Shown one piece after another: positions 1 to 13,407 of a DNA stretch of 13,407 bases. The notes beneath the pieces were generated by a model. It was not told the DNA's origin. It saw only the letters and a program-made list of their open reading frames with translations, and made no database searches. Source of the stretch: a virus. Lineage: Duplodnaviria > Heunggongvirae > Uroviricota > Caudoviricetes. The stretch is taken from IMG/VR virus record IMGVR_UViG_2537562172_000003, positions 1 to 13,407 of that record; one strand, 5' to 3'. The position numbers and the translations under genes are program-made. Numbering within the stretch: the stretch's first letter is position 1; each line of letters opens with the position of its first letter.

Positions 1-1284
1 TTACTTCTTCGCCTCTGCAACCACTTTACTACCCACGCCGCGGTTATTGTATTCCCACATGCGGTTGTAGTTAGTGTCATTCAGATTGCGCTGTATTTCG
101 TCGTTATCATCTACGCTGCCGGTATTACCCGCAAACGGACGATTAGAGATCACCGCATCGGCCCACGGTTTAGCCGTGTTAAAACCTTCGTTGATGGCGC
201 TATCACGGATCACCACCTGACCGTTGGTATTGGCATCAACATCCAGCGAGCGGCCCAGTTGCGCCACACCATCACCGAAAGCATTGAAACGGCTGTTTAC
301 GGCGAGGAAACCGTAGTAAATGTTGGACAGCGTAGCCGGTGCAAACACATACGCTTCTTGCTGAGTACGTGAGTTCACCACGCGGAATTCGGTGTTATCG
401 AACACCACTGCGCCGCGACCAGAAACGATATCCACATCCCCTTCAATGTAGCTGTTGGTCACCAGCGTACGCGGCTGACGATTTGTTTCCAGACGGTTCT
501 GCACACCGCTGTTGGTGACAAAGAAGGTGTTCTGACGACCGAGAATGTTAACGTTGTTAATCTGTACCTGGTCACCATCAGTACGCAGTGCCACCGCCGG
601 ATGGTTACCTGCATCTACGCTATCGCCCAGCGTGTTTTCGATGGTCAGATTTTGCAGTTGCAGGCCATTGTTTTGTGACCAGAAGACCGCAGAGCAGAGA
701 ACACCGATACTGTCGCTGCGTTTGCTCTGGCAGCTATCGTACATATACCACGCTGGTTTACCTGGCATATATTTGCCGCGCGGGTTGACGTCGTGACGCC
801 AGTCGGCAGGGCTCATGCCACCATCAAGGGAAAGCCCAATCTTCACATCAATCGGTTTTTCACCTGTACCGTACAGAGTAATTCCACCCGGAGCGGCAGG
901 GACATATACCGTTCCCTGATACTCACCAGGCATCACGGCAATATACTGGCGCTTGTTGGTACGCTTGATAATTGCCGCATCTACCGCCGCCTGAATCGTG
1001 GTATGCGTTACACCTTGAGTGCCCGCCGGGCCGACAACAAAGTCAGGTTGCGCAGGCAGGGTAATCGGGGAAGGATTCCACGCTGCAGCACCTGGTGTCA
1101 GGGATGCAAAATAGTGTTGAGCATCGAAATTCTGCGCTTCTTTTGCCGACAGAATCGGGCGAGAAGAGGTACCAGGCGCGGTTTGATCAGAAGGACGTTG
1201 ATCGGGCGGGGTTGAGCTACAGGCGGTCAGCGTCACGCCAAAAGCCAATGCCAGCGCCAGACGGGAAACTGAAAATGTGTTCAC
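1..1284 (-). CDS. ybhC: YbhC-type lipoprotein (pectinesterase-like fold; annotated in E. coli as putative acyl-CoA thioesterase); host gene flanking att-lambda
   Basis: Complete 427-aa ORF, TAA stop at 1-3, GTG start at 1282-1284 preceded by GGAG. N-terminus MNTFSVSRLALALAFGVTLTACSS is a lipoprotein signal with lipobox LTAC. Sequence recognised from memory as E. coli YbhC, whose gene neighbours attB-lambda. Confidence 0.85.
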   Translation of the reverse strand: MNTFSVSRLALALAFGVTLTACSSTPPDQRPSDQTAPGTSSRPILSAKEAQNFDAQHYFASLTPGAAAWNPSPITLPAQPDFVVGPAGTQGVTHTTIQAAVDAAIIKRTNKRQYIAVMPGEYQGTVYVPAAPGGITLYGTGEKPIDVKIGLSLDGGMSPADWRHDVNPRGKYMPGKPAWYMYDSCQSKRSDSIGVLCSAVFWSQNNGLQLQNLTIENTLGDSVDAGNHPAVALRTDGDQVQINNVNILGRQNTFFVTNSGVQNRLETNRQPRTLVTNSYIEGDVDIVSGRGAVVFDNTEFRVVNSRTQQEAYVFAPATLSNIYYGFLAVNSRFNAFGDGVAQLGRSLDVDANTNGQVVIRDSAINEGFNTAKPWADAVISNRPFAGNTGSVDDNDEIQRNLNDTNYNRMWEYNNRGVGSKVVAEAKK

Positions 1285-1330
1285 AGGTTGCTCCGGGCTA
1301 TGAAATAGAAAAATGAATCCGTTGAAGCCT

Positions 1331-1422
1331 GCTTTTTTATACTAAGTTGGCATTATAAAAAAGCATTGCTTATCAATTTGTTGCAACGAACAGGTCACTA
1401 TCAGTCAAAATAAAATCATTAT
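1331..1422. other. attL: Lambda-type attL (B-O-P'): 15-bp core plus P' arm
   Basis: Exact lambda core GCTTTTTTATACTAA at 1331-1345. P' arm follows: IHF H'-like TATCAATTTGTTG at 1371-1383, Int arm-type sites AGGTCACTAT (1393-1402), CAGTCAAAAT (1402-1411), AAAATCATTAT (1412-1422) overlapping the int stop codon. Bacterial flank TGAAGCCT precedes the core. Confidence 0.88.
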
Positions 1423-2489
1423 TTGATTTCAATTTTGTCCCACTCCCTGCCTCTGTCATCACGATACTGTGATGCCATGGTGTCCGACTTATGCCCGAGA
1501 AGATGTTGAGCAAACTTATCGCTTATCTGCTTCTCATAGAGTCTTGCAGACAAACTGCGCAACTCGTGAAAGGTAGGCGGATCCCCTTCGAAGGAAAGAC
1601 CTGATGCTTTTCGTGCGCGCATAAAATACCTTGATACTGTGCCGGATGAAAGCGGTTCACGACGAGTAGATGCAATTATGGTTTCTCCGCCAAGAATCTC
1701 TTTGCATTTATCAAGTGTTTCCTTCATTGATATCCCGAGAGCATCAACATGCAATGTTGTTGGGATGGCAATTTTTACGCCTGTTTTGCTTTGCTCGACA
1801 TAAAGATATCCATCTACGATATCAGACCACTTCATTTCGCATAAATCACCAACTCGTTGCCCGGTAACAACAGCCAGTTCCATTGCAAGTCTGAGCCAAC
1901 ATGGTGATGATTCTGCTGCTTGATAAATTTTCAGGTATTCGTCAGCCGTAAGTCTTGATCTCCTTACCTCTGATTTTGCTGCGCGAGTGGCAGCGACAGG
2001 GTTTGTTGTTATATGGCCTTCAGCTATTGCCTCTCGGAATGCATCGCTCAGTGTTGATCTGATTAACTTGGCTGACGCCGCCTTGCCCTCGTCTATGTAT
2101 CCATTGAGCATTGCCGCAATTTCTTTTGTGGTGATGTCTTCAAGTGGAGCATCAGGCAGACCCCTCCTTATTGCTTTAATTTTGCTCATGTAATTTATGA
2201 GTGTCTTCTGCTTGATTCCTCTGCTGGCCAGGATTTTTTCGTAGCGATCAAGCCATGAATGTAACGTAACGGAATTATCACTGTTGATTCTCGCTGTCAG
2301 AGGCTTGTGTTTGTGTCCTGAAAATAACTCAATGTTGGCCTGTATGGCTTCAGTGATTGCGATTCGCCTGTCTCTGCCTAATCCAAACTCTTTACCCGTC
2401 CTTGGGTCCCTGTAGCAGTAATATCCATTGTTTCTTATATAAAGGTTAGGGGGTAAATCCCGGCGCTCATGACTTCGCCTTCTTCCCAT
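1419..2489 (-). CDS. int: Lambda integrase (tyrosine recombinase), 356 aa
   Basis: ORF translation matches lambda Int essentially along its whole length as remembered (MGRRRSHERRDLPPNLYIRNNGYY ... DDRGREWDKIEIK); overlaps xis 3' end as in lambda; adjacent to the P' arm. Confidence 0.96.
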   Translation of the reverse strand: MGRRRSHERRDLPPNLYIRNNGYYCYRDPRTGKEFGLGRDRRIAITEAIQANIELFSGHKHKPLTARINSDNSVTLHSWLDRYEKILASRGIKQKTLINYMSKIKAIRRGLPDAPLEDITTKEIAAMLNGYIDEGKAASAKLIRSTLSDAFREAIAEGHITTNPVAATRAAKSEVRRSRLTADEYLKIYQAAESSPCWLRLAMELAVVTGQRVGDLCEMKWSDIVDGYLYVEQSKTGVKIAIPTTLHVDALGISMKETLDKCKEILGGETIIASTRREPLSSGTVSRYFMRARKASGLSFEGDPPTFHELRSLSARLYEKQISDKFAQHLLGHKSDTMASQYRDDRGREWDKIEIK

Positions 2490-2685
2490 TTCTGATCCTC
2501 TTCAAAAGGCTACCTGTTACTGGTCGATTTAAGTCAACCTTTACCGCTGATTCGTGGAACAGATACTCTCTTCCATCCTTAACCGGAGGAGGGAATATCC
2601 TGCACTCGCGTACCCATCGACGAACTGTTTCAAGGCTTCTTGGGCGTCGCTGGCGTGCGTTCCACTCCTGAAGTGTCAAGTACAT
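2467..2685 (-). CDS. xis: Lambda excisionase, 72 aa
   Basis: Translation MYLTLQEWNARQRRPRSLETVRRWVRECRIFPPPVKDGREYLFHESAVKVDLNRPVTGSLLKRIRNGKKAKS matches lambda Xis; 23-nt overlap with int. Confidence 0.96.
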   Translation of the reverse strand: MYLTLQEWNARQRRPRSLETVRRWVRECRIFPPPVKDGREYLFHESAVKVDLNRPVTGSLLKRIRNGKKAKS

Positions 2686-2711
2686 CGCAAAGTCTCCGCA
2701 ATTACACGCAA

Positions 2712-2733
2712 GAAAAAACCGCCATCAGGCGGC
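2712..2733 (-). terminator. Putative intrinsic terminator between the 55-aa ORF and xis
   Basis: Minus-strand hairpin CCGCC-TGAT-GGCGG (plus coordinates 2719-2732) followed by a T6 run (A-run 2713-2718 on the plus strand). Confidence 0.4.
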
Positions 2734-2892
2734 TTGGTGTTCTTTCAGTTCTTCAATTCGAATATTGGTTACGTCTGCATGTGCTATCTGCGCCCACAGC
2801 ATCCAGTGGTCATAGCAGTCGCTGATGTTCTCGGCTTCGATAACTCTGTTGAATGGTTCTCCATTCCATTCACCTGTGACTCGGAAGTGCAT
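2725..2892 (-). CDS. Small 55-aa hypothetical protein upstream of xis (probably the lambda orf55 equivalent)
   Basis: Not in the ORF track (under 60 aa). Minus-strand ATG at 2890-2892 preceded by GGAG; translation MHFRVTGEWNGEPFNRVIEAENISDCYDHWMLWAQIAHADVTNIRIEELKEHQAA; stop at 2725-2727. The 39-nt gap to xis matches what I recall for a 55-aa ORF in lambda, from memory only. Confidence 0.5.
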   Translation of the reverse strand: MHFRVTGEWNGEPFNRVIEAENISDCYDHWMLWAQIAHADVTNIRIEELKEHQAA

Positions 2893-2904
2893 TTATCATC
2901 TCCA

Positions 2905-2929
2905 TAAAAAAAACTCGCCGTAGCGAGTT
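2905..2929 (-). terminator. Putative intrinsic terminator
   Basis: Minus-strand hairpin AACTCGC-TACG-GCGAGTT (plus 2912-2929) followed by a T7-8 run. Confidence 0.4.
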
Positions 2930-3088
2930 CAGATAAAAGAAATCCCCGCGAGTGCGAGGATAGTTATTCATTGTCGATATTTACATTTATTTCGAATATC
3001 TTTACTGGGTAATCGCCAAAGTCATATATTTTTTATTCTGTTTTATAAGCACTACCAAGTACTGCTTATTACAAATAAGAAAAGGCTG

Positions 3089-3118
3089 AAAAAAATATTT
3101 AAGGCCACAACTGTGGCC
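3089..3118 (-). terminator. Putative intrinsic terminator downstream of the DUF1311-like gene
   Basis: Perfect 6-bp stem GGCCAC/GTGGCC with 4-nt loop (3103-3118) just after the stop at 3129, followed on the minus strand by a T-rich run (plus-strand A-run 3089-3097). Confidence 0.45.
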
Positions 3119-3128
3119 CTAAATTTAC

Positions 3129-3827
3129 TTACGGCACTGCGTTAATCAGATTACAAATACCTCTTTTGGCAGGGTCTGAATTCAACTTCTGAAAATTGGC
3201 GTTCAACATAGCCGTGTGTAAGTGATTCTCAACCTCAAAGAATAGGTCGATTTTGCCCTCTTTGGCTGCCTGTTTCTTCCAAATATTCACTTGGTCATCA
3301 GCAATACGACTAGCGCAAGTGAACAAGAACGAACTGCCTCTAGGAATGGATGTCGTGCTGTAATACTCACCATCTACTTCTACATATTTAGCTCGGAATG
3401 ACTCTAAGGTTAGCTTATTGCCGTTCTTGACCGACTTAGCTTCTGCCTTACTTGTATCTTCCTGCTCTTTAGAATGTTTCTGCGCCGACGTGGGTATGTC
3501 ATTGGCCGCTGTTACGCTGACTGAACTCCCCAAACCTTTGAGGCCATTAATTTGGATAAGATAAGCCAGCTCCAGAGCCTTATTATCAGTGAGTTTTCCA
3601 CGCATATTTACCCACTGACGTTGAACCATTTTTAGGGTGTCTGCGTTCTCTGGGTTTCCTTTGAGGGCACTAGAATAGGCAGAGCTAAGCTGTTCGTCTA
3701 ATTTTGACAGACGTTCGTTCTCGCAGATTTTATGTTCGATTGCTGTCGAAGCCTTTTGGCAGTCAAAGCTGGCTGCAAATGCACCCGGCGATGCCACTAA
3801 CAATGATGCCAGTAGGATATTTTTCAT
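3129..3827 (-). CDS. Secreted protein with an N-terminal DUF1311 (LprI-like lysozyme-inhibitor) type domain, 232 aa; non-lambda cargo
   Basis: ORF 3129-3854; preferred start is ATG at 3825-3827 (MKNILLASLLVASPGAFA, signal peptide with AFA-A cleavage motif) preceded by GGAG. Mature N-terminus SFDCQKASTAIEHKICENERLSKLDEQLSSAYSSAL resembles the conserved Cys-containing DUF1311 motif, assigned from memory. Not a lambda gene. Confidence 0.7.
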   Translation of the reverse strand: MKNILLASLLVASPGAFAASFDCQKASTAIEHKICENERLSKLDEQLSSAYSSALKGNPENADTLKMVQRQWVNMRGKLTDNKALELAYLIQINGLKGLGSSVSVTAANDIPTSAQKHSKEQEDTSKAEAKSVKNGNKLTLESFRAKYVEVDGEYYSTTSIPRGSSFLFTCASRIADDQVNIWKKQAAKEGKIDLFFEVENHLHTAMLNANFQKLNSDPAKRGICNLINAVP

Positions 3828-3957
3828 ATTCACTCCATAAATACAAAAGCGCATTACTATAGCACTTAACCGATCGCTTATCTCGCCCGTTCGTCATTCT
3901 TATCTAACCAGAACATGCGACTGCCACAGCACATGTCGAGGATTGCTGCATGTCCAG

Positions 3958-4371
3958 TCACTGGTTGCCTCCTTTGCGAAGCTGGGCGGCTAACTCATCA
4001 CATATGTGCGTCAAAGAGCAAAGTTTGATTGATGGATGTTCGCGCATCATCTCCACCCCCTGCGCCCGTACTTCAGCCAGGAAAGCATCGGTGGCTGGCA
4101 TATTTCCTGTTGCCTTCATGGCCTCCAAAATAACCAGAACACCATCTCTCCCAATCTCCTCGCAGATAACCTCGGTGCTGTCGCCAACAACATCGCAGAA
4201 TTCCTGAACTGCTTTACGAGCCAGCTCATTCTCCGCCGCCAGCGCCGAAAACTTCTCGTGTGCCAACTTAACAGCTGCATCAGCCTGCTTAATTGACTCA
4301 GTCGCTTTCTGGTGGTCTTCGGCCAGCCCTGCTAAATCAGCCTCCAGTTCGGCTACGGGACCAGCCATCAA
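3958..4371 (-). CDS. Hypothetical 137-aa protein (coiled-coil-rich N-terminus), possibly a remnant or fusion at the substitution junction
   Basis: Longest ORF in this segment and in the same orientation as the operon. Its first codons lie inside the bet remnant in another frame, so the true start is uncertain. No motif recognised. Confidence 0.35.
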   Translation of the reverse strand: MMAGPVAELEADLAGLAEDHQKATESIKQADAAVKLAHEKFSALAAENELARKAVQEFCDVVGDSTEVICEEIGRDGVLVILEAMKATGNMPATDAFLAEVRAQGVEMMREHPSIKLCSLTHICDELAAQLRKGGNQ

Positions 4372-4606
4372 CGCCCACCACCGGAACGATGCCGTTCTGC
4401 TTATCAGGGAAGGCGTAAATTTCTTTCGTCCACGGATTAAGGCCGTACTGGTTGGCGACGATCAACAATGCGATGAACTGCGCATCGCTGGCATCACCTT
4501 TAAATGCCGTCTGGCGAAGAGTGGTGATCAGTTCCTGTGGGTCGACAGAATCCATGCCGACACGTTCAGCCAGCTTCCCAGCCAGCGTTGCGAGTGCTGT
4601 ACTCAT
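4337..4606 (-). pseudogene. bet: Truncated lambda bet (Red-beta): first ~84 codons, then 5 unrelated codons and a stop
   Basis: Translation MSTALATLAGKLAERVGMDSVDPQELITTLRQTAFKGDASDAQFIALLIVANQYGLNPWTKEIYAFPDKQNGIVPVVGVDGWSR matches the lambda Bet N-terminus, then diverges (SRTGG-stop); lambda Bet is 261 aa. exo is absent. Confidence 0.88.
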
Positions 4607-4611
4607 CCGTT

Positions 4612-5028
4612 TTATACCTCTGAATCAATATCAACCTGATGGTGAGCAATGGTTTCAACCATGTACCGGATGTGTTCTGCCATGCGCTCCTGAAACTCAA
4701 CATCGTCATCAAACGCACGGGTAATGGCTTTTTTGCTGGCCCCGTGGCGTTGCAAATGATCGATGCATAGCGATTCAAACAGGTGCTGGGGCAGGCCTTT
4801 TTCCATGTCGTCTGCCAGTTCTGCCTCTTTCTCTTCACGGGCGATCTGCTGGTAGTGACGCGCCCAGCTCTGAGCCTCAAGACGATCCTGAATGTAATAA
4901 GCGTTCATGGCTGAACTCCTGAAATAGCTGTGAAAATATCGTCCGCGAAATGCCGGGCTGATTAGAAAAACAGGGAAGGGGGGTAGTGAATGCTTTTGCT
5001 TGATCTCAGTTTCAGTATTAATATCCAT
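4612..5028 (-). CDS. gam: Lambda Gam (RecBCD inhibitor), 138 aa
   Basis: Translation matches lambda Gam ([15 protein letters not shown]...[10 protein letters not shown]) with a few substitutions relative to my recollection (e.g. SLPPFPV here vs SLTPFPV). Confidence 0.95.
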
Positions 5029-5126
5029 TTTTTATAAGCGTCGACGGCCTCACGAAACATCTTTTCATCGCCAATAAAAGTGGCGATAGTGAATTTAGTC
5101 TGGATAGCCATAAGTGTTTGATCCAT
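4962..5126 (-). CDS. kil: Lambda Kil (FtsZ-inhibiting host-killing protein), here 54 aa (about 47 aa in lambda as I recall)
   Basis: Start [47 protein letters not shown] at 5124-5126, overlapping the cIII 3' end and the gam 5' end as in lambda. The ORF runs 7 codons further (YPPSLFF) than the remembered lambda stop. Confidence 0.7.
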
Positions 5127-5259
5127 TTTTTGGGACTCCTGGCTGATTAAGTATGTCGATAAGGCGTTTCCATCCGTCACGTAATTTACGGGTGATTCGT
5201 TCAAGTAAAGATTCGGAAGGGCAGCCAGCAACAGGCCACCCTGCAATGGCATATTGCAT
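5095..5259 (-). CDS. cIII: Lambda CIII (FtsH/HflB inhibitor), 54 aa
   Basis: Not in the ORF track (under 60 aa). Minus-strand translation from ATG 5257-5259: [54 protein letters not shown], matching lambda CIII; preceded by TAAGGAG. Confidence 0.92.
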   Translation of the reverse strand: MQYAIAGWPVAGCPSESLLERITRKLRDGWKRLIDILNQPGVPKNGSNTYGYPD

Positions 5260-5331
5260 GGTGTGCTCCTTATTTATACATAACGAAAAACGCCTCGAGT
5301 GAAGCGTTATTGGTATGCGGTAACGCCGCGC

Positions 5332-5700
5332 TCAGGCGGCTTTGATAGTCATATCATCTGGATCAAATATTCCTGATGTATCGATATCGGTAATTCTTAT
5401 TCCTTCGCTACCATCCATTGGAGGCCATCCTTCCTGACCATTTCCATCATTCCAGTCGAACTCACACACAACACCATATGCATTTAAGTCGCTTGAAATT
5501 GCTATAAGCAGAGCATGTTGCGCCAGCATGATTAATACAGCATTTAATACAGAGCCGTGTTTATTGAGTCGGTATTCAGAGTCTGACCAGAAATTATTAA
5601 TCTGGTAAAGTTTTTCCTCTGTCATTACGTCATGGTCGATTTCAATTTCTATTGATGCTTTCCAGTCGTAATCAATGATGTATTTTTTGATGTTTGACAT
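5332..5700 (-). CDS. ea10: Lambda Ea10-like early protein, 122 aa
   Basis: 122-aa ORF 72 nt upstream of cIII, the same size and spacing as lambda ea10 as I remember it; SD GAGGA upstream of the ATG. Acidic C-terminus. Confidence 0.7.
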   Translation of the reverse strand: MSNIKKYIIDYDWKASIEIEIDHDVMTEEKLYQINNFWSDSEYRLNKHGSVLNAVLIMLAQHALLIAISSDLNAYGVVCEFDWNDGNGQEGWPPMDGSEGIRITDIDTSGIFDPDDMTIKAA

Positions 5701-5719
5701 CTATTCATATCCTCACAGA

Positions 5720-5746
5720 TAAAAAATCGCCCTCATACTGGAGGGC
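5720..5746 (-). terminator. Putative hairpin/terminator upstream of ea10
   Basis: Minus-strand stem GCCCTC-CAGTAT-GAGGGC (plus 5729-5746) followed by GATTTTTT. Confidence 0.35.
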
Positions 5747-5861
5747 AAAGAAGATTTCCAATAATCAGAACAAGTCGACTCCTGTTTAGTTACGAGCGAC
5801 ATTGCTCCGTGTATTCACTCGTTGGAATGAATACACAGTGCAGTGTTTATTCTGTTGTTTG

Positions 5862-5889
5862 CGTGAAAATGAAACCCGCCTGAGCGGGT
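5862..5889 (-). terminator. Putative intrinsic terminator downstream of the orphan 289-aa gene
   Basis: Minus-strand stem ACCCGC-TCAG-GCGGGT (plus 5874-5889) followed by TTTCATTTT; overlaps the stop codon at 5889-5891. Confidence 0.45.
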
Positions 5890-6758
5890 TATGACCACTT
5901 TTTGTTTGGATTTCGTTGGTGAGCGTGGTTTACAGGATTATTTGATATACCCCATAACTCTGACTCGCTTATCTCTACACGAGAGAAAGACCTGCTTTCT
6001 TTCAGTTCTTTTATAAACCTAGAACCTACGATGACATCTATTGTCCCAGAAAGTTCTTGTAAAAGATCTTTGTTTTTTCTGAGGAAGAAAACATCTTCTT
6101 TATATTTAATTTTTACATAGAATTTATTCTGTATTTTTAATATATCAAAGCATGGCAGATATCTATATCCCTCATGCTTTCGCCACTGCTTAACAATTAT
6201 AACATCTCTTTCATTTACTGCATTAATCAGCCCAAGACCAAGTATAGGTATGAATATTCTATTGTCTGCCGAAAGCGTACAATTATTACCACCAGGCAAA
6301 TATGTATAAATCATGTCGGAATTTTTATACGCATCAACGAATGCACGTAAGAATCGTACATATTTTTGCCATCCGTTTATACCAAATTTACCATATAAGT
6401 ATTCTTTATTTGTTAGAAGAAAACTATTTGTATCAGGAGCCTTATCTACAGACCTGTCGATAAGATCTCCAACTACGTTTACAAAGTCAAAGACAGAGTT
6501 TAATAAGAACAATTGTCTTTCAGTCGGGCGAATTTCAATTATGTAGCCTGGATGAAGACGATATTGCATCTGCTTACGAAGTATGCTGAACGCTTGGGTC
6601 CGGGCATCTGAAAGCAACTTCCTGTCGCCATCGCCGTGAGCATTGTTTCTAATAAAACTGATATAATTTGCTAATTTTTCAGCCTCTTTTTTGTGTTTTT
6701 TTCGCTCTGATGCTGAGTCTATTGGTTTTGGTATGGACTTGTAATCAATTTTCTTCAT
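5889..6758 (-). CDS. Orphan AT-rich protein of unknown function (289 aa from ATG 6758; 293 aa from ATG 6770), in the ral-sieB slot; candidate superinfection-exclusion or abortive-infection factor
   Basis: Uninterrupted 294-codon ORF; visibly AT-rich compared with flanking lambda genes. First ATG (6768-6770) overlaps the N stop codon (ATGA); second ATG (6756-6758) has a well-spaced GAGG SD. Lys-rich N-terminus; no Walker, HTH or catalytic motif recognised. Not a lambda gene. Confidence 0.75.
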   Translation of the reverse strand: MKKIDYKSIPKPIDSASERKKHKKEAEKLANYISFIRNNAHGDGDRKLLSDARTQAFSILRKQMQYRLHPGYIIEIRPTERQLFLLNSVFDFVNVVGDLIDRSVDKAPDTNSFLLTNKEYLYGKFGINGWQKYVRFLRAFVDAYKNSDMIYTYLPGGNNCTLSADNRIFIPILGLGLINAVNERDVIIVKQWRKHEGYRYLPCFDILKIQNKFYVKIKYKEDVFFLRKNKDLLQELSGTIDVIVGSRFIKELKESRSFSRVEISESELWGISNNPVNHAHQRNPNKKWS

Positions 6759-6766
6759 TACGTACC

Positions 6767-7090
6767 TCATGCCAATGGAATGGATTTCCCTTTAACCTTT
6801 TGTCTTCCTTGACAAGTTATACCGAACTCACTTGGCTTGCTATACCAAACTCGATGATTCTTGCGCTCAATACGTTGCAGGTTGCTTTCAATCTGTTCGT
6901 GGTATTCAGCCAGCACCGTAAGGTCTATCGGATTCAGTGCGCTTTCTACTCGTGATTTCGGTTTGCGATTCAGCGAGAGAATAGGGCGGTTAACTGGTTT
7001 TGCGCTTACCCCAACCAACAGGGGATTTGCTGCTTTCCATTGAGCCTGTTTCTCTGCGCGACGTTCGCGGCGGCGTGTTTGTGCATCCAT
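6767..7090 (-). CDS. N: Lambda N antiterminator, 107 aa
   Basis: Translation from MDAQTRRRERRAEKQAQWKAANPLLVGVSAKPVNRPILSLNRKPKSRVESALNPIDLTVLAEYH... matches lambda N (arginine-rich motif at the N-terminus). The track ORF extends 26 codons upstream into the leader. Confidence 0.93.
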   Translation of the reverse strand: MDAQTRRRERRAEKQAQWKAANPLLVGVSAKPVNRPILSLNRKPKSRVESALNPIDLTVLAEYHEQIESNLQRIERKNHRVWYSKPSEFGITCQGRQKVKGKSIPLA

Positions 7091-7248
7091 CTGGATTCTC
7101 TTGTCAGTTAGCTTTGGTGGTGTGTGTGAGTCGTAGTCCTGAACGAAAACACCCCACGATTGGCTCATTTGCAGCTAATCCGGATTCGCACTTCCGGCCA
7201 ATGCTTCGTTTCGTATCACACACCCCAAAGCCTTCTGCTTTGAATGCT

Positions 7249-7280
7249 GCCCTTCTTCAGGGCTTAATTTTTAAGAGCAT
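7249..7280 (-). promoter_or_regulatory. nutL: nutL (boxB hairpin and boxA)
   Basis: Minus-strand reading TGCTCTTAAAAATTAAGCCCTGAAGAAGGGCAGCA: boxB GCCCTGAAGAAGGGC (plus 7249-7263) and boxA-like TGCTCTTA (plus 7271-7278), about 160 nt upstream of the N start as in lambda. Confidence 0.88.
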
Positions 7281-7312
7281 CACCTTCAATGGTGGTCAGT
7301 GCGTCCTGCTGA

Positions 7313-7393
7313 TGGCTTAAAATTACAAGAAAGATTGTATGTTGTAAACAAGAAATATTGTAAAAAAGGGGCATGAAAAACAAACTCCATTGT
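7313..7393 (-). promoter_or_regulatory. pL promoter with phage-434 OL operators
   Basis: Three 14-bp 434-type operators ACAAGAAAGATTGT (7325-7338), ACAAGAAATATTGT (7348-7361), ACAAACTCCATTGT (7380-7393). Minus-strand -35 TTTACA (plus 7343-7348) and -10 TAATTT (plus 7320-7325) with 17-bp spacer; start near 7313 (ATCAGCAGGACG, lambda-like). Confidence 0.75.
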
Positions 7394-7443
7394 TTTTAAA
7401 CGGAAAATAGTTTGTTTTTTGGTTATCGAGATTGAGGTGGGGA

Positions 7444-8799
<1,356 letters not shown>

Positions 8800-8807
8800 G
8801 ACATTCC

Positions 8808-8839
8808 CGCTCTTACACATCCCAGCCCTGAAAAAGGGC
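8808..8839 (+). promoter_or_regulatory. nutR: nutR (boxA and boxB)
   Basis: boxA CGCTCTTA at 8808-8815; boxB hairpin GCCCTGAAAAAGGGC at 8825-8839; followed by the lambda-like cro-cII leader. Confidence 0.88.
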
Positions 8840-8918
8840 ATCAAATTAAACCACACCTATGGTGTATGCATTTATTTGCATACATTCAATCAATTGTTAT
8901 CTAAGGAAATACTTACAT

Positions 8919-9350
8919 ATGGTTCGTGCAAACAAACGCAACGAGGCTCTACGAATCGAGAGTGCGTTGCTTAACAAAATCGCAATGCTTGGAACTGAGA
9001 AGACAGCGGAAGCTGTGGGCGTTGATAAGTCGCAGATCAGCAGGTGGAACCCTGAGACGGTCGCAAGATGGCTTGATGCGATGGCAAACCTTGAGCGACG
9101 AAACGCGCAGTTTAATGAGTTTAAAGCCGAGTGGATGAGCGCGAATGGCAATCCAGGACAATCGCGTAATGGCGGTCAGATATTGGGGTTGGATGTTAAA
9201 AAAGGTGAATCATTGGGGAGTGCCGTTAAGCGGTATATGTCAATGAATACTGACGCAGCGCCAGCACAAGATTCGACACCTTCAGGAGAACCACGGTATC
9301 AGGTTGGATCATATACCTCAAAATCAGGCATTCAATTTACGGTGGAATGA
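8919..9350 (+). pseudogene. cII: Truncated cII: codons 1-43 fused in frame to ~100 codons from the 3' end of a late (gp20-like ejection protein?) gene
   Basis: MVRANKRNEALRIESALLNKIAMLGTEKTAEAVGVDKSQISRW matches lambda CII residues 1-43; after about 9047 the sequence is unrelated to CII (lambda CII is 97 aa). The stop overlaps the start of the gp16-like gene, which suggests the tail of the upstream gene in a P22-like late operon. Confidence 0.75.
8928..8941 (-). promoter_or_regulatory. CII-binding site of pRE (TTGC-N6-TTGC)
   Basis: Minus-strand TTGCGTTTGTTTGC inside the first codons of cII, as in lambda pRE. Confidence 0.5.
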
Positions 9351-11191
9351 TGAAAGTAACTGCAAACGGTAAGACATTTACCTTCCCTGATGGTACGAGC
9401 ACGGAAGATATTGGCACCGCCATTGATGAGTATTTTGCTGGTCAGGCTGTTCAGCAACAAACAGTTAATCAGGCCAATAATGCACCAACACGGGAAGAAC
9501 CATCATTAATGCAACAAGCTGGCGATTGGCTCACTGGTGGTCAAAGTGCAGGGCAAATTGCAGAACAGGCTGGTCGTGGTCTGGTAAACATACCATTTGA
9601 CGTATTGCAGGGTGGCGCAAGTCTGATTAATGCAATCAGTCAGGGGCTTGGTGGGCCAAAAGTATTGGATGATGTCTATCGTCCAGTCGATCGACCGACA
9701 GACCCTTATGCGCAAGCTGGAGAAACAATTGGCGGGTATTTAGTTCCAGGAGTTGGAACGGCAGGAAGCATGGCTATTGGATCACTGGCAGAGGCCGCAA
9801 ATCAGAAAGGCGATTTCGCACAAAATGCAGCTAAAAATGCCGGAGTTAACCTTGTCGCTCAGGGTGTTCTTTCCGCAGCAGCAAAGGGAATAGGGCGTGG
9901 AATAACGGCTATAAAAGGTGATATTGCGCCAGAAGTGGCGAAGAAAATTGCCACATCAGAATCGATGGGCGTGACACCAATGACATCTGATGTTATCCCG
10001 CCGAAAAATGCTTTCACTCGCGGCCTTACTCAGGATTCCGAGGGGGCTTTGCTCGGGACAGGCTCAAAGCGAGCGGAGCAATATGCAACGCGTAGTAAGC
10101 TGGTAAGTAATTATTTTGACCGTTTTGGTGAGTACAACCCGGATGATGTGGTGAAATCTCTGACCACCACGTTAAGGGGGCGGAAGGATGCCGCTGGCGC
10201 TGTTATCAATGACGTCACCAATAAAATGGGTAATGCCGCAGTTGATACCACAAATACCATGAATGCTCTGAATACAGCGATCGCAAGACAGGAACGGCTT
10301 GGGACGTCTGCTAATCAAAGCCTGCTTACATCCTTGCGTAACCTACGTGAAGAATTAGCAAACCCTGCAACTGATTTGGATGTTACGTTTGATCTCTTGC
10401 GTCAGCATAGAACGGCATTTAGATCTAATGTTCAGGGAGATGCTATGGTCTTCCCCAACCAGGCAAAAGCAGCTACCAATATGGTAGAGAATGCAATGTC
10501 AAAAGACCTTCGTAACGCAGTTGCTAAAAACCTCGGTGCTTCAGACGCAGCAAAATACCTTAAAGCAAATTCCGATTATGCAAACGTTTATAATAAGGTG
10601 CTTAATAAAAACATTGCTAACAAGCTCAACAAGGCAAGCAGTGAAGCCAGTCCTGAACTTATAAATACCGTTGTATTAAGCAGAAAACCATCTGACGTGA
10701 AACGAATTTGGAGCGCATTGGATGATAAAGGGAAAGATGCTATGCGTGCAGCTTACGTCAGCAAAATAGCGGAAAAGGCCGGTGACTCTCCAGCCAAGTT
10801 CATCACTGAAGTTAATAAGCTGAAATCTCAGTCAGGTGGTGAAATTTACAACACTATTTTTTCTGGAAAGCACATGAAAGAGCTTGATGCTCTTCATGAA
10901 GTTCTACAGCAAACAGCAAGGTCAGACACCGCAAATGTAGTAACTCAGACGGGGCAATCGCAAGCCAACAGGATAAGGACGATTGGCGCAACTGCGACTC
11001 TTGGCGTATCAATGGGGATTGAGGCTGGTTTCGGTGCAATGATGCGCTTGTATGAGTCCAAAGTAGCAAGGAATGCTCTCTTACGTCTGGCAAACACTAA
11101 AGCTGGAACGCCGGCTTATGAAAGAGCGCTAAATAATGCTGCAAATGCGATACGCCCTATACTTGCAAGCCAGATTACAGCAGAACAATAG
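9347..11191 (+). CDS. P22 gp16-like ejection (DNA-transfer) protein, 614 aa
   Basis: Large Ala/Gly/Gln-rich protein; size and position (immediately before the tailspike) fit gp16-type injection proteins; start ATGATG overlaps the upstream stop (alternative start 9350). Confidence 0.65.
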
Positions 11192-11242
11192 ATAAATAAT
11201 TAATTAAGCACATAACTACTGACAGATAACCAACGCAACGAC

Positions 11243-11264
11243 CCAGCTCCGGCTGGTTTTTTTA
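11243..11264 (+). terminator. Putative intrinsic terminator after the ejection-protein gene
   Basis: Hairpin CCAGC-TCCG-GCTGG (11243-11256) followed by T7 (11257-11263). Confidence 0.5.
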
Positions 11265-11321
11265 TTCCAAAAATTCACCGTAGCCACGCTGCGGCGATTC
11301 CTTGCATCTGGAGCAAATTAA

Positions 11322-13407
11322 ATGACAGACATTACAGCCAATGTGATCGTATCGATGCCTTCGCAACTCTTCACTATGGCGCGTTCTTTTAAAGCCGTAG
11401 CCAATGGCAAAATTTATATCGGTAAAATTGACACTGACCCGGTAAATCCTGAAAACCAGATTCAGGTTTATGTAGAAAACGAAGATGGTTCTCATGTTCC
11501 TGTTTCGCAACCAATCATCATTAACGCTGCTGGATATCCGGTATACAACGGACAGATTGTCAAATTCGTTACTATACAGGGCCATTCTATGGCTGTTTAT
11601 GATGCGTACGGTTCTCAGCAGTTCTATTTTCCTAATGTCCTGAAGTATGACCCTGACCAATTAAGGCAAGAATTAGCTTCTGACAGAGGAGCAACATTAT
11701 CATTAAGTCAGATAGCTACTTCTTACGGTCTTGATTTCTCGTTAGGCGGTGTATGGCAGGAGGGGGCGTTATCTTATGTTGATAACTGGTGGTGGTATAA
11801 TAATAAAATCTACACCGGTGGTAGCGGAAATCTGCCATCTATCCCATCAGCACCGTGGTATCCAATTCGCCCGGGATACAATTTTAAACTTAACAGACTT
11901 TATTACCTCCAAGGGTGTGAGCGATATTCTTGACGTAGTGGACTGGCAATGGGCTTTTGATAGCGCAAAATTAAACGCCAAAAACACAACAGTTATAGAT
12001 ATGGACGGTCGTGAATACGCGGTTACCGGAGGCGGTTACGTTATGCATCAGGGAGTTAGTCTGAGAGGTGCTCGCGATGCTATGCAAAACCCTTCTGTCG
12101 ATGGTTTGAGTATTGTTTATATTAACAAGACACCTTCAGCCTCTGATGTCATTTTTATTCTACGCGGCGGAAACTTGCTTGAAGACTTTGGCGTCTACTA
12201 TGCTCAACAAACATATGCGGCGCTATCTGCCATGGTTGACGTCGGAATTCTGTTTAAAAAGCTACCAGGAACTGGTGGGACAGATGCTATAAATACAAAA
12301 GGCTGCATAGTTAAAGGGGTAAGCGCCTGCGGTGTGAGTAAGTTTTACTCCGGTTCTTATGCAGATAACGCGCCTGGTGAGTACGACGATGTTAGTCGAG
12401 TCGCTGTTACACCTACACCTTATGGGCCATCGTTTAGGCTTGGAATTAGCACAGACTTACTTCGATACCAAACTATTCATATAAACGCCAATGTCGTCAG
12501 TGCGTACAGAGCAAAGTACGGTGTTGACATTTCACCTCGTGCGCTACCATCAAGCTATACATCTTGCGTGGGATTTCTTGTTGAACGCGCGGATGGATGT
12601 ACGATTCACGACATTCTTACTTATGGTGTCCCGTATCCTGTCGTACTGGGCGCTGTTGGCGCTACCGGAGGGACTCATGGGTGCAGTGTCAATTTATCTC
12701 AATGCGCATTCGATGCAACGCAAACACCTGTCTACATAAACTGCCCGACAGGTGCGTTTGGTGTTCAACTTTCAAACTGTCAGGTTGTATTCGACGAGAA
12801 ATTCGGAGATTCTAACGGGCAATTAATATACTTAGGATCCGCGGCAAGCAATCATCAAGTCTCGCTTTCTAATATTAAAGTGCAAATGACAGCCAATTTT
12901 AGCTACCGACCTGTTCGCGCTGTTTCTGAGAGTAAACAAAACAGGATAATGTTTAGTGATTGCGCGTTAACAGGTAGCGCTAATAACCTTGATGAAGGAA
13001 CTGGCAACCGTATAAGTTTAATCCAAAGTACAAGGAATTTAGGTAACCTAAACTTAATGACCAATCTAACGCCGGAGAGTTCGTTGGTTTCAAGTATGGG
13101 GGAGCTCAATACTATTGTTAGACATTCAGTTAGTGTCACTGTTCAACAAGGAGCAACATTTGCGAACATCTCAGTTACATACCCTTACTCAGGATTTATA
13201 TCGGCACCTAATGTCAAGACAGAAATAACATCGGTTAGTATTTCTGGTCAAAGTGATGACACGATGTACACATCAAGGGCGTATGGCAGAAGTCAATCAG
13301 GGTGCGTCATCAGAGTGAACTTGTCGAAGGCTGCAGTGGCAACTGGTGCACTGACAGTAGATCTATACCTGATTGGAACAGTAAGGGGGGAACTAACATC
13401 TGTGTAG
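11322..13407 (+). CDS. P22/HK620-type tailspike: conserved N-terminal head-binding domain plus divergent receptor-binding domain; reading frame shifts +1 in the 11749-11933 overlap
   Basis: N-terminus [113 protein letters not shown] matches tailspike head-binding domains; SD GGAG upstream. The 11322-11933 ORF stops and the protein continues in the +1 frame (11749-13407, TAG at 13405-13407). Confidence 0.75.

Follow-up and report, generated by a model that had tools for sequence, protein, structure and literature searches.

What does a lambdoid prophage carry when ral and sieB are gone? The question is raised by a 13,407-nucleotide (nt) stretch of DNA (IMG/VR record IMGVR_UViG_2537562172_000003, positions 1 to 13,407; "the window" means this whole stretch). 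It is a defective 434-immunity prophage at the lambda attachment site next to ybhC, and it matches E. coli ETEC4073 at 100%. Between its N and ea10 genes lies a single gene for a 289-amino acid (aa) protein, here named X, which a preliminary description of this DNA had taken for an orphan without motifs and a candidate exclusion gene. The answer proposed here turns on the end of X, which is also the end of Nun. Nun is the textbook example of a phage protein that freezes RNA polymerase (RNAP) to stop a rival, and its targeting is attributed to a short RNA-binding peptide. The reading favoured below, to which about an even chance is given, is that X is a Nun-type RNAP arrest factor with a new targeting domain and that exclusion is its most likely role.

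The Nun tail

The coding sequence and its last segment lie as follows:

5889..6758, minus strand: coding sequence of X, 289 aa, stop codon included; RefSeq WP_001383906.1 and phage 434 UMO75312.1 share this start
5892..5933, minus strand: Nun-type RNAP translocation-arrest peptide of X, residues 276-289 (VNHAHQRNPNKKWS), identical to HK022 Nun 96-109

All 14 residues of X 276-289 are those of Nun 96-109 (PDB 6ALG chain N), and this was the single significant match in a phmmer search of PDB sequences. The tail is also matched by PHROG 5632, 'Nun-like transcription termination factor' (E 4e-5). The Nun-like C-terminus was already known, since the counterpart of X in phage 434 (CPT_434_48) is labelled "Nun C-terminal peptide-containing protein" in GenBank. 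The statement that X has no motif is therefore not correct.

What is known about this peptide in Nun? Residues 87-109 are the only part of Nun that is ordered in the elongation complex, and all known arrest determinants lie there (Kang et al., 2017; PMC5386594). N97, H98 and H100 touch RNA, template DNA and the beta-prime rudder, R102 and the C-terminal carboxylate form a pair, and K106, K107 and W108 occupy a pocket that includes beta-prime D329, whereas N103 is dispensable (PMC5386594). At high levels Nun arrests RNAP without nut RNA and is toxic (PMC5386594). X has every cleft residue shown to matter except H93 and R94, its tail is disordered in the structural model described below, and it has a free C-terminus one residue past the tryptophan, as in the Nun arrest segment.

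Perhaps the tail is only a scar of recombination? The 3' end of X (52 nt, 5883-5934) has 90% DNA identity to a true nun gene, that of an Stx1 phage, which shows that nun genes have taken part in exchange. However, X homologues of only 37-49% identity all have the equivalents of N97, H98, H100, R102, K106, K107 and W108, and the position of N103 is variable. The tail is therefore under selection and no mere scar. Across X family members of 37-68% identity, the tail residues V, N, H, A, H, R, K, K and W do not change.

The tail also occurs elsewhere. A degenerate DNA scan of IMG/VR for N-H-A-H-x-R-x3-K-K-W gave at least 120 matches, which were translated. Among the matches listed, the tail ends only two kinds of protein. 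One consists of small proteins (67-123 aa) that carry arginine-rich motifs (ARMs) of various kinds at the N-terminus, Nun itself included. The other is the X family, with proteins of 289-293 aa at no fewer than 25 loci. In the stretch that corresponds to Nun 87-95, most of the proteins of the first kind have a pattern resembling M-[HN]-[RK]-V, which is absent from the X family. One match (L053) was set aside as a chance match when its translation was judged. The two architectures suggest that the Nun arrest peptide has been reused as a module, attached to small proteins with differing ARMs and to a folded domain of TnpB/Cas12 architecture.

In five IMG/VR loci (L048, L049, L099, L111 and L112), 88-aa proteins combine a near-lambda-N ARM (MDAQARRREKRKEKQEEWK) at the start with the Nun tail at the end; from their sequences they look like N/Nun hybrids. 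Another locus (L083) has two small Nun-tailed genes in tandem. In L004, a Pantoea-like lambdoid prophage, a separate 102-aa small Nun-type protein with an ARM and a Nun tail is encoded at 9037-9345 (plus strand). The leftward operon of this prophage holds N, an X homologue and, just downstream of the latter, the small Nun-type gene, which suggests that the two Nun-tailed proteins are not redundant.

The predicted core and its relatives

Like nun of HK022, the gene of X lies close to the promoter of the leftward early operon in a lambdoid phage. However, X has 289 aa where Nun has 109, and in phage 434 it coexists with N. Nun (about 110 aa) is largely unstructured, whereas some 200 aa between the basic N-terminus and the tail of X are predicted with confidence to be folded. 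The prediction depended on the homologues supplied. With five sequences AlphaFold gave an unusable model (predicted local distance difference test, pLDDT, 50.5). Remote homologues covering residues 72-226 then came from a search of 1.84 billion representative proteins, and a run with 33 sequences replaced the first (pLDDT 81.6, predicted template modelling score 0.76; residues 260-289 disordered). The new model has helices at 16-38 and 43-65, a strand at 71-77, a helical block at 80-145, a beta-rich block with one helix at 152-218 and a long helix at 223-259. Three features follow from it:

6099..6548, minus strand: predicted TnpB/Cas12-like WED-REC-WED core, residues 71-220
5982..6092, minus strand: long helix, residues 223-259, ending in SFSRVEIS, where TnpB has RuvC; the helix and an SRV(D/E) motif occur in remote homologues too
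6645..6719, minus strand: basic N-terminal helix, residues 14-38 (DSASERKKHKKEAEKLANYISF), helix 16-38 in the model, possibly an ARM-like RNA-binding element

In a Foldseek search of PDB and BFVD, TnpB/Cas12 and 'transposase' proteins came out on top, none with E <1e-3. The strand-helices-barrel order of X agrees with the order WED-REC-WED of published TnpB structures. The model contains the bilobed WED-REC architecture of the N-terminal half of TnpB/Cas12, and its predicted WED strand, REC helices and WED barrel have counterparts in ISDra2 TnpB (8H1J/8EXA), RdCas12n (9UDI), Cas12f and Fanzor. A global alignment of X with TnpB is collinear across the LPKLG-like and hairpin motifs (IEIRPTERQ..L against VRLYPNAAQ..L, IFIPILGLG against LKLPKLGWV, NKFYVKIKY against EGHYEASVL) and stops where RuvC motif I of TnpB begins. 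The best profile alignment (hhalign, 94 TnpB N-terminal halves) pairs X 71-98 with TnpB 6-33 at P 0.011; the reversed control gave 0.3.

What X lacks is just as plain. A RuvC domain, a D-E-D catalytic triad and a zinc-finger/TNB domain were looked for in X and not found; past residue 220 the model has just the one helix (223-259) and the disordered tail. X is about 220 residues shorter than full TnpB, and no omega-RNA or transposon ends were detected for it. Neither X nor the 33 family members matched Pfam, including PF12323, PF01385 and PF07282, at E up to 10. Because the order of the fold matches and the RuvC domain and zinc finger have no counterpart, X is best described as TnpB-like in the fold of its core, not as a member of the TnpB family.

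Other searches added little. A PDB profile search with a wide alignment gave no match, D-Ala-D-Ala ligase matches from a PDB sequence search (E ~0.08) were judged to be noise, and the PADLOC-DB 2.0 models of defence systems matched neither X nor five remote homologues. The basic N-terminal helix was compared with known ARMs: RKKHKKEAEKLANY of X aligns gap-free with those of N and Nun, at an hhalign probability of 12.8%. No ARM signal specific to the N of the same phage was seen, and the motif is poorly kept in a 68%-identical homologue (P0003).

A precedent for TnpB-type proteins that do not cut DNA is TldR. TldRs are TnpB-like, nuclease-dead repressors that block promoters and have retained both a guide RNA and a RuvC fold, the latter inactivated. 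X too would be an exaptation of TnpB-type recognition for transcription control without DNA cleavage, except that it has no RuvC and carries an RNAP-arrest peptide. Could X also have a guide RNA? A structured RNA near X was sought in Rfam without a match; the only RNAs that came up were the known cIII thermoregulator and one tRNA. Such an RNA might still be encoded inside the X open reading frame (ORF) or elsewhere.

The remote homologues share 16-26% identity with X. Core, long helix and SRV(D/E) motif are all present in them, but the tail is a different one, GGLPSLGKRR. Those in L008-L012 and L018 (gene at 6001-6867 or equivalent) and in L140 (11971-12915) end in the strongly conserved EG(K/R)xVxGGLPSLGKRR. 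Four of the core homologues (P0031, P0033, P0035 and P0036) lie between brxC and pglX inside bacteriophage exclusion (BREX) operons, with flanking gaps of 22 and 34 bp. In several metagenomic plasmid-like contigs the core homologue is a fixed gene between brxC and pglX, and this BREX variant continues with genes for a 376-aa, a 423-aa and an HSP70-like protein.

The setting is not the same everywhere. P0032 has as neighbours a ParB, an NYN/OST-HTH protein, a RelA_SpoT protein and a PLD-type protein, and P0021 stands alone, near a CheX gene. Core homologues were also seen beside plasmid ParB and TrfA genes and on three Burkholderia plasmids, two of them predicted to be conjugative; the one examined sits among small hypothetical genes.

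New so far as the searches show are the TnpB/Cas12-like core without RuvC, the restriction of the tail to two kinds of protein among the matches listed, and the relatives embedded in BREX operons with another tail.

The gene, its slot and its proposed role

Is the gene itself sound? The features around its two ends are:

5889..6770, minus strand: alternative longer ORF of X, 293 aa, from an upstream ATG at 6770
6765..6770, minus strand: N/X junction, with the overlap ATGA (ATG 6770-6768, TGA 6769-6767) and a GAGG Shine-Dalgarno motif (6768-6765)
6767..7090, minus strand: lambda-type N gene, directly upstream of X
7249-7263: lambda-type nutL boxB
5861..6776, no strand assigned: mosaic block that replaces lambda 34065-35046 (ral, orf28, sieB), from blastn against lambda
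5863..5890, minus strand: terminator-like hairpin directly 3' of the X stop, stem 5890-5873, then UCAUUUUCAC, an interrupted U-run

The uninterrupted 289-293-aa ORF between N and ea10 is there as described, and so is the ATGA overlap of its upstream start with the N stop. The ATG at 6758 has the GAGG motif at a 6-nt spacing and is the start chosen by RefSeq and by the phage 434 GenBank record. Both candidate starts lie within 12 nt of the N stop, which makes translational coupling of X to N plausible from the sequence. Shuffling the block (916 bp) 2000 times gave longest open runs of 73 codons on average and 232 at most, so the ORF is not a chance product. Over its full length X is matched by PHROG 12139 (E 2.9e-203), a family of unknown function. 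The gene had been called much more AT-rich than its flanks. This holds clearly against N (35.1 versus 48.1% GC) but only slightly against ea10 (38.5%); the window as a whole has 45.3%.

That the ral/sieB slot has undergone a cassette swap was borne out by the comparison with lambda, which also gives the exact boundaries. Homology stops at window position 5860 (lambda 34064) and restarts at 6777 (lambda 35047). Between these points blastn found no DNA homology to lambda, and 916 bp stand in place of 982 bp of lambda with ral, orf28 and sieB. X thus shares with lambda SieB and Ral a slot for accessory exclusion and anti-restriction functions. However, it is one gene in place of three ORFs, it has no sequence similarity to SieB or Ral, and neither family was matched by X in Pfam or PHROG. 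Only 28 bp of the block remain downstream of the X stop. The terminator proposed there is a real hairpin, with a dG of -15.1 kcal/mol and a z of -3.8.

Nor is X an orphan. The 1.7-kb region around it has 97.6% DNA identity to phage 434 and was found in 80 of 5426 complete E. coli genomes, counting places that cover at least 80% of the query, and IMG/VR has the family on 25 contigs or more. Clustered at 90% protein identity, X falls in a group of 1042 members, every one named hypothetical. There are also homologues at 37-68% identity, and the cluster of one of these extends to Pantoea. In lambda imm434, the laboratory hybrid, lambda sieB and ral stand in place of X, which may explain why a gene of a classical model phage was neglected.

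The position of the gene recurs. In five divergent lambdoid loci (the window, L004, L107, L059 and L041) an X homologue follows an N-like gene by 1-12 nt. Two other loci (L005 and L132) have no N gene, and there the X homologue is the first gene after the repressor, exactly the slot of nun in HK022. In L005 a partly GC-rich leader of 310 bp (2801-3110) separates repressor and X homologue. This leader may be structured, although it has no Rfam match.

How might X work? Nun binds boxB RNA through a short arginine-rich peptide and so delivers its arrest peptide. In X, the disordered C-terminal tail, which corresponds to the inner part of the RNAP-binding segment of Nun, would enter the RNAP cleft and block translocation. 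The domain of about 200 aa with the WED-REC fold and the basic N-terminal helix would supply the recruitment that Nun gets from its ARM, H93 and R94. The domain might choose elongation complexes by a feature of nucleic acid, be it nascent RNA, upstream DNA or an R-loop-like fork. We infer the arrest step because the tail is identical to a peptide with a published structure and known mutational effects; the targeting step we infer from the fold alone. Transcription from pL would reach X as the second of the immediate-early genes, or as the first where the prophage has no N, with the hairpin after the X stop. Like HK022 Nun acting on lambda, X would then halt transcription on the genomes of competing phages and so exclude them. 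By this analogy its function is probably exclusion. The exclusion-type function proposed in the preliminary description gains from the identity and conservation of the tail, the slot in prophages without N and the BREX relatives. It loses from those plasmid homologues that have no defence genes nearby.

Other observations weigh against an arrest factor used for exclusion as well. The outer arrest segment (Nun 87-95) is not conserved in X (ELWGISNNP in X, KYEDVMHRV in Nun), and H93 and R94, which in Nun contact upstream DNA, H93 by stacking on it, and serve binding, have no counterpart. The TnpB link rests on a predicted structure and its sequence support is weak, given the hhalign P value and the silence of Pfam. 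The ARM resemblance of the N-terminal helix is not significant and is only suggestive. Expression is another problem. X lies in the pL operon beside N, and pL is repressed in a lysogen, which makes expression of X there uncertain. No independent promoter was found upstream of the X start, and the sole promoter-like site nearby (6775-6748) would initiate downstream of the ATG. In addition, an arrest factor directed by boxB would hit the transcripts of 434 itself, because 434 has lambda-type nut sites. Finally, the literature search found no paper on the gene and hence no experiments on X.

What if X serves the phage that makes it during lytic growth? In this scenario X, made alongside N in the immediate-early phase, arrests pause-prone host RNAP, and complexes on the phage genome, which N has rendered pause-resistant, escape; the result would be shut-off of host transcription or tuning of pL and pR of the phage itself. 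X abuts N in the pL operon of five divergent loci, the hairpin makes N-X the unit expected before antitermination, and no lysogenic promoter was found. Nun itself acts on paused complexes and competes with N (PMC5386594). However, L005 and L132 have no N gene, so protection by N cannot be general, and the literature searched does not document that phage 434 shuts off its host. A further point against it is that nun of HK022 has the same position as X and is expressed in lysogens all the same. We consider this scenario unlikely. A second alternative has X as a Ral-like establishment or anti-defence protein of mobile elements, in which the core binds nucleic acid or a component of the host or its defences and the C-terminal peptides are swappable plugs. 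The lambda slot does hold the anti-restriction gene ral, the core homologues on Burkholderia conjugative plasmids sit among small hypothetical genes and others beside ParB and TrfA, and the tail differs between subfamilies that keep the core and SRV(D/E). Against this, the tail of X is an RNAP-arrest peptide, the sole known use of which is exclusion, and the four BREX-associated homologues are inside BREX operons, not opposite them. Such a role is decidedly improbable. Both alternatives keep some weight, since X is not proven to be expressed in the lysogen and since the family at large goes with mobile elements of all kinds.

The last alternative is that X has no function at all and is a chimera of a decayed tnpB-like remnant with the 3' end of nun. 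The 52 nt shared with nun at 90% identity would fit, and the prophage in the window is itself defective. Nevertheless, the ORF is intact in phage 434, in the 80 E. coli genomes and even in homologues with no more than 37% identity (other hosts include Pantoea), and tail, core and length (288-290 aa) are conserved. The model is confident (pLDDT 81.6), and a recent remnant would be much more similar to TnpB than X is. The idea was rejected on grounds of conservation and is very unlikely, indeed close to refuted.

To return to X as an arrest factor with its own targeting domain, the experiments would be simple, since Nun-resistant rpoC alleles and an in vitro arrest assay exist. If the domain does direct the arrest peptide, this would be a new way of targeting transcription elongation and a new fate for TnpB-type domains. 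It would also offer a handle on the related proteins in BREX operons, whose mechanism is still unclear. A bolder generalization, which we think quite unlikely to be right, is that a TnpB-derived domain without RuvC reads a specific nucleic acid (perhaps with the help of a guide RNA, or by recognition of the R-loop-like fork in a transcription complex) and delivers a short C-terminal 'plug' peptide to a host machine. The proteins would then form an unrecognised class of mobile-element protein, X, with the Nun arrest peptide as its plug, would be a programmable or sequence-directed transcription roadblock, and GGLPSLGKRR would be the plug of the BREX relatives. If so, that tail might point to the missing effector step of this BREX variant.

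The surrounding prophage

The prophage in the window (1-13407) is a heavily deleted 434-immunity remnant in which recT and cII are truncated. Directly after the truncated cII comes a 614-aa ORF (9347-11191) with no Pfam match, and the gene after that is a 'phage head-binding domain-containing protein' in RefSeq. An accessory region between xis and the recombination genes encodes an LprI-family (lysozyme inhibitor) protein at 3129-3854 (minus strand). An ORF at 7444-7920 (minus strand), downstream of 434 cI and overlapping its 3' end, is the counterpart of the 434 Hex region; the protein that RefSeq annotates here is shorter, with 103 aa, and the 434 record says that the published start codon is wrong. 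The lambda cIII thermoregulator RNA element (RF01804) at 5214-5272 (minus strand) is intact and scores 88.5 bits.
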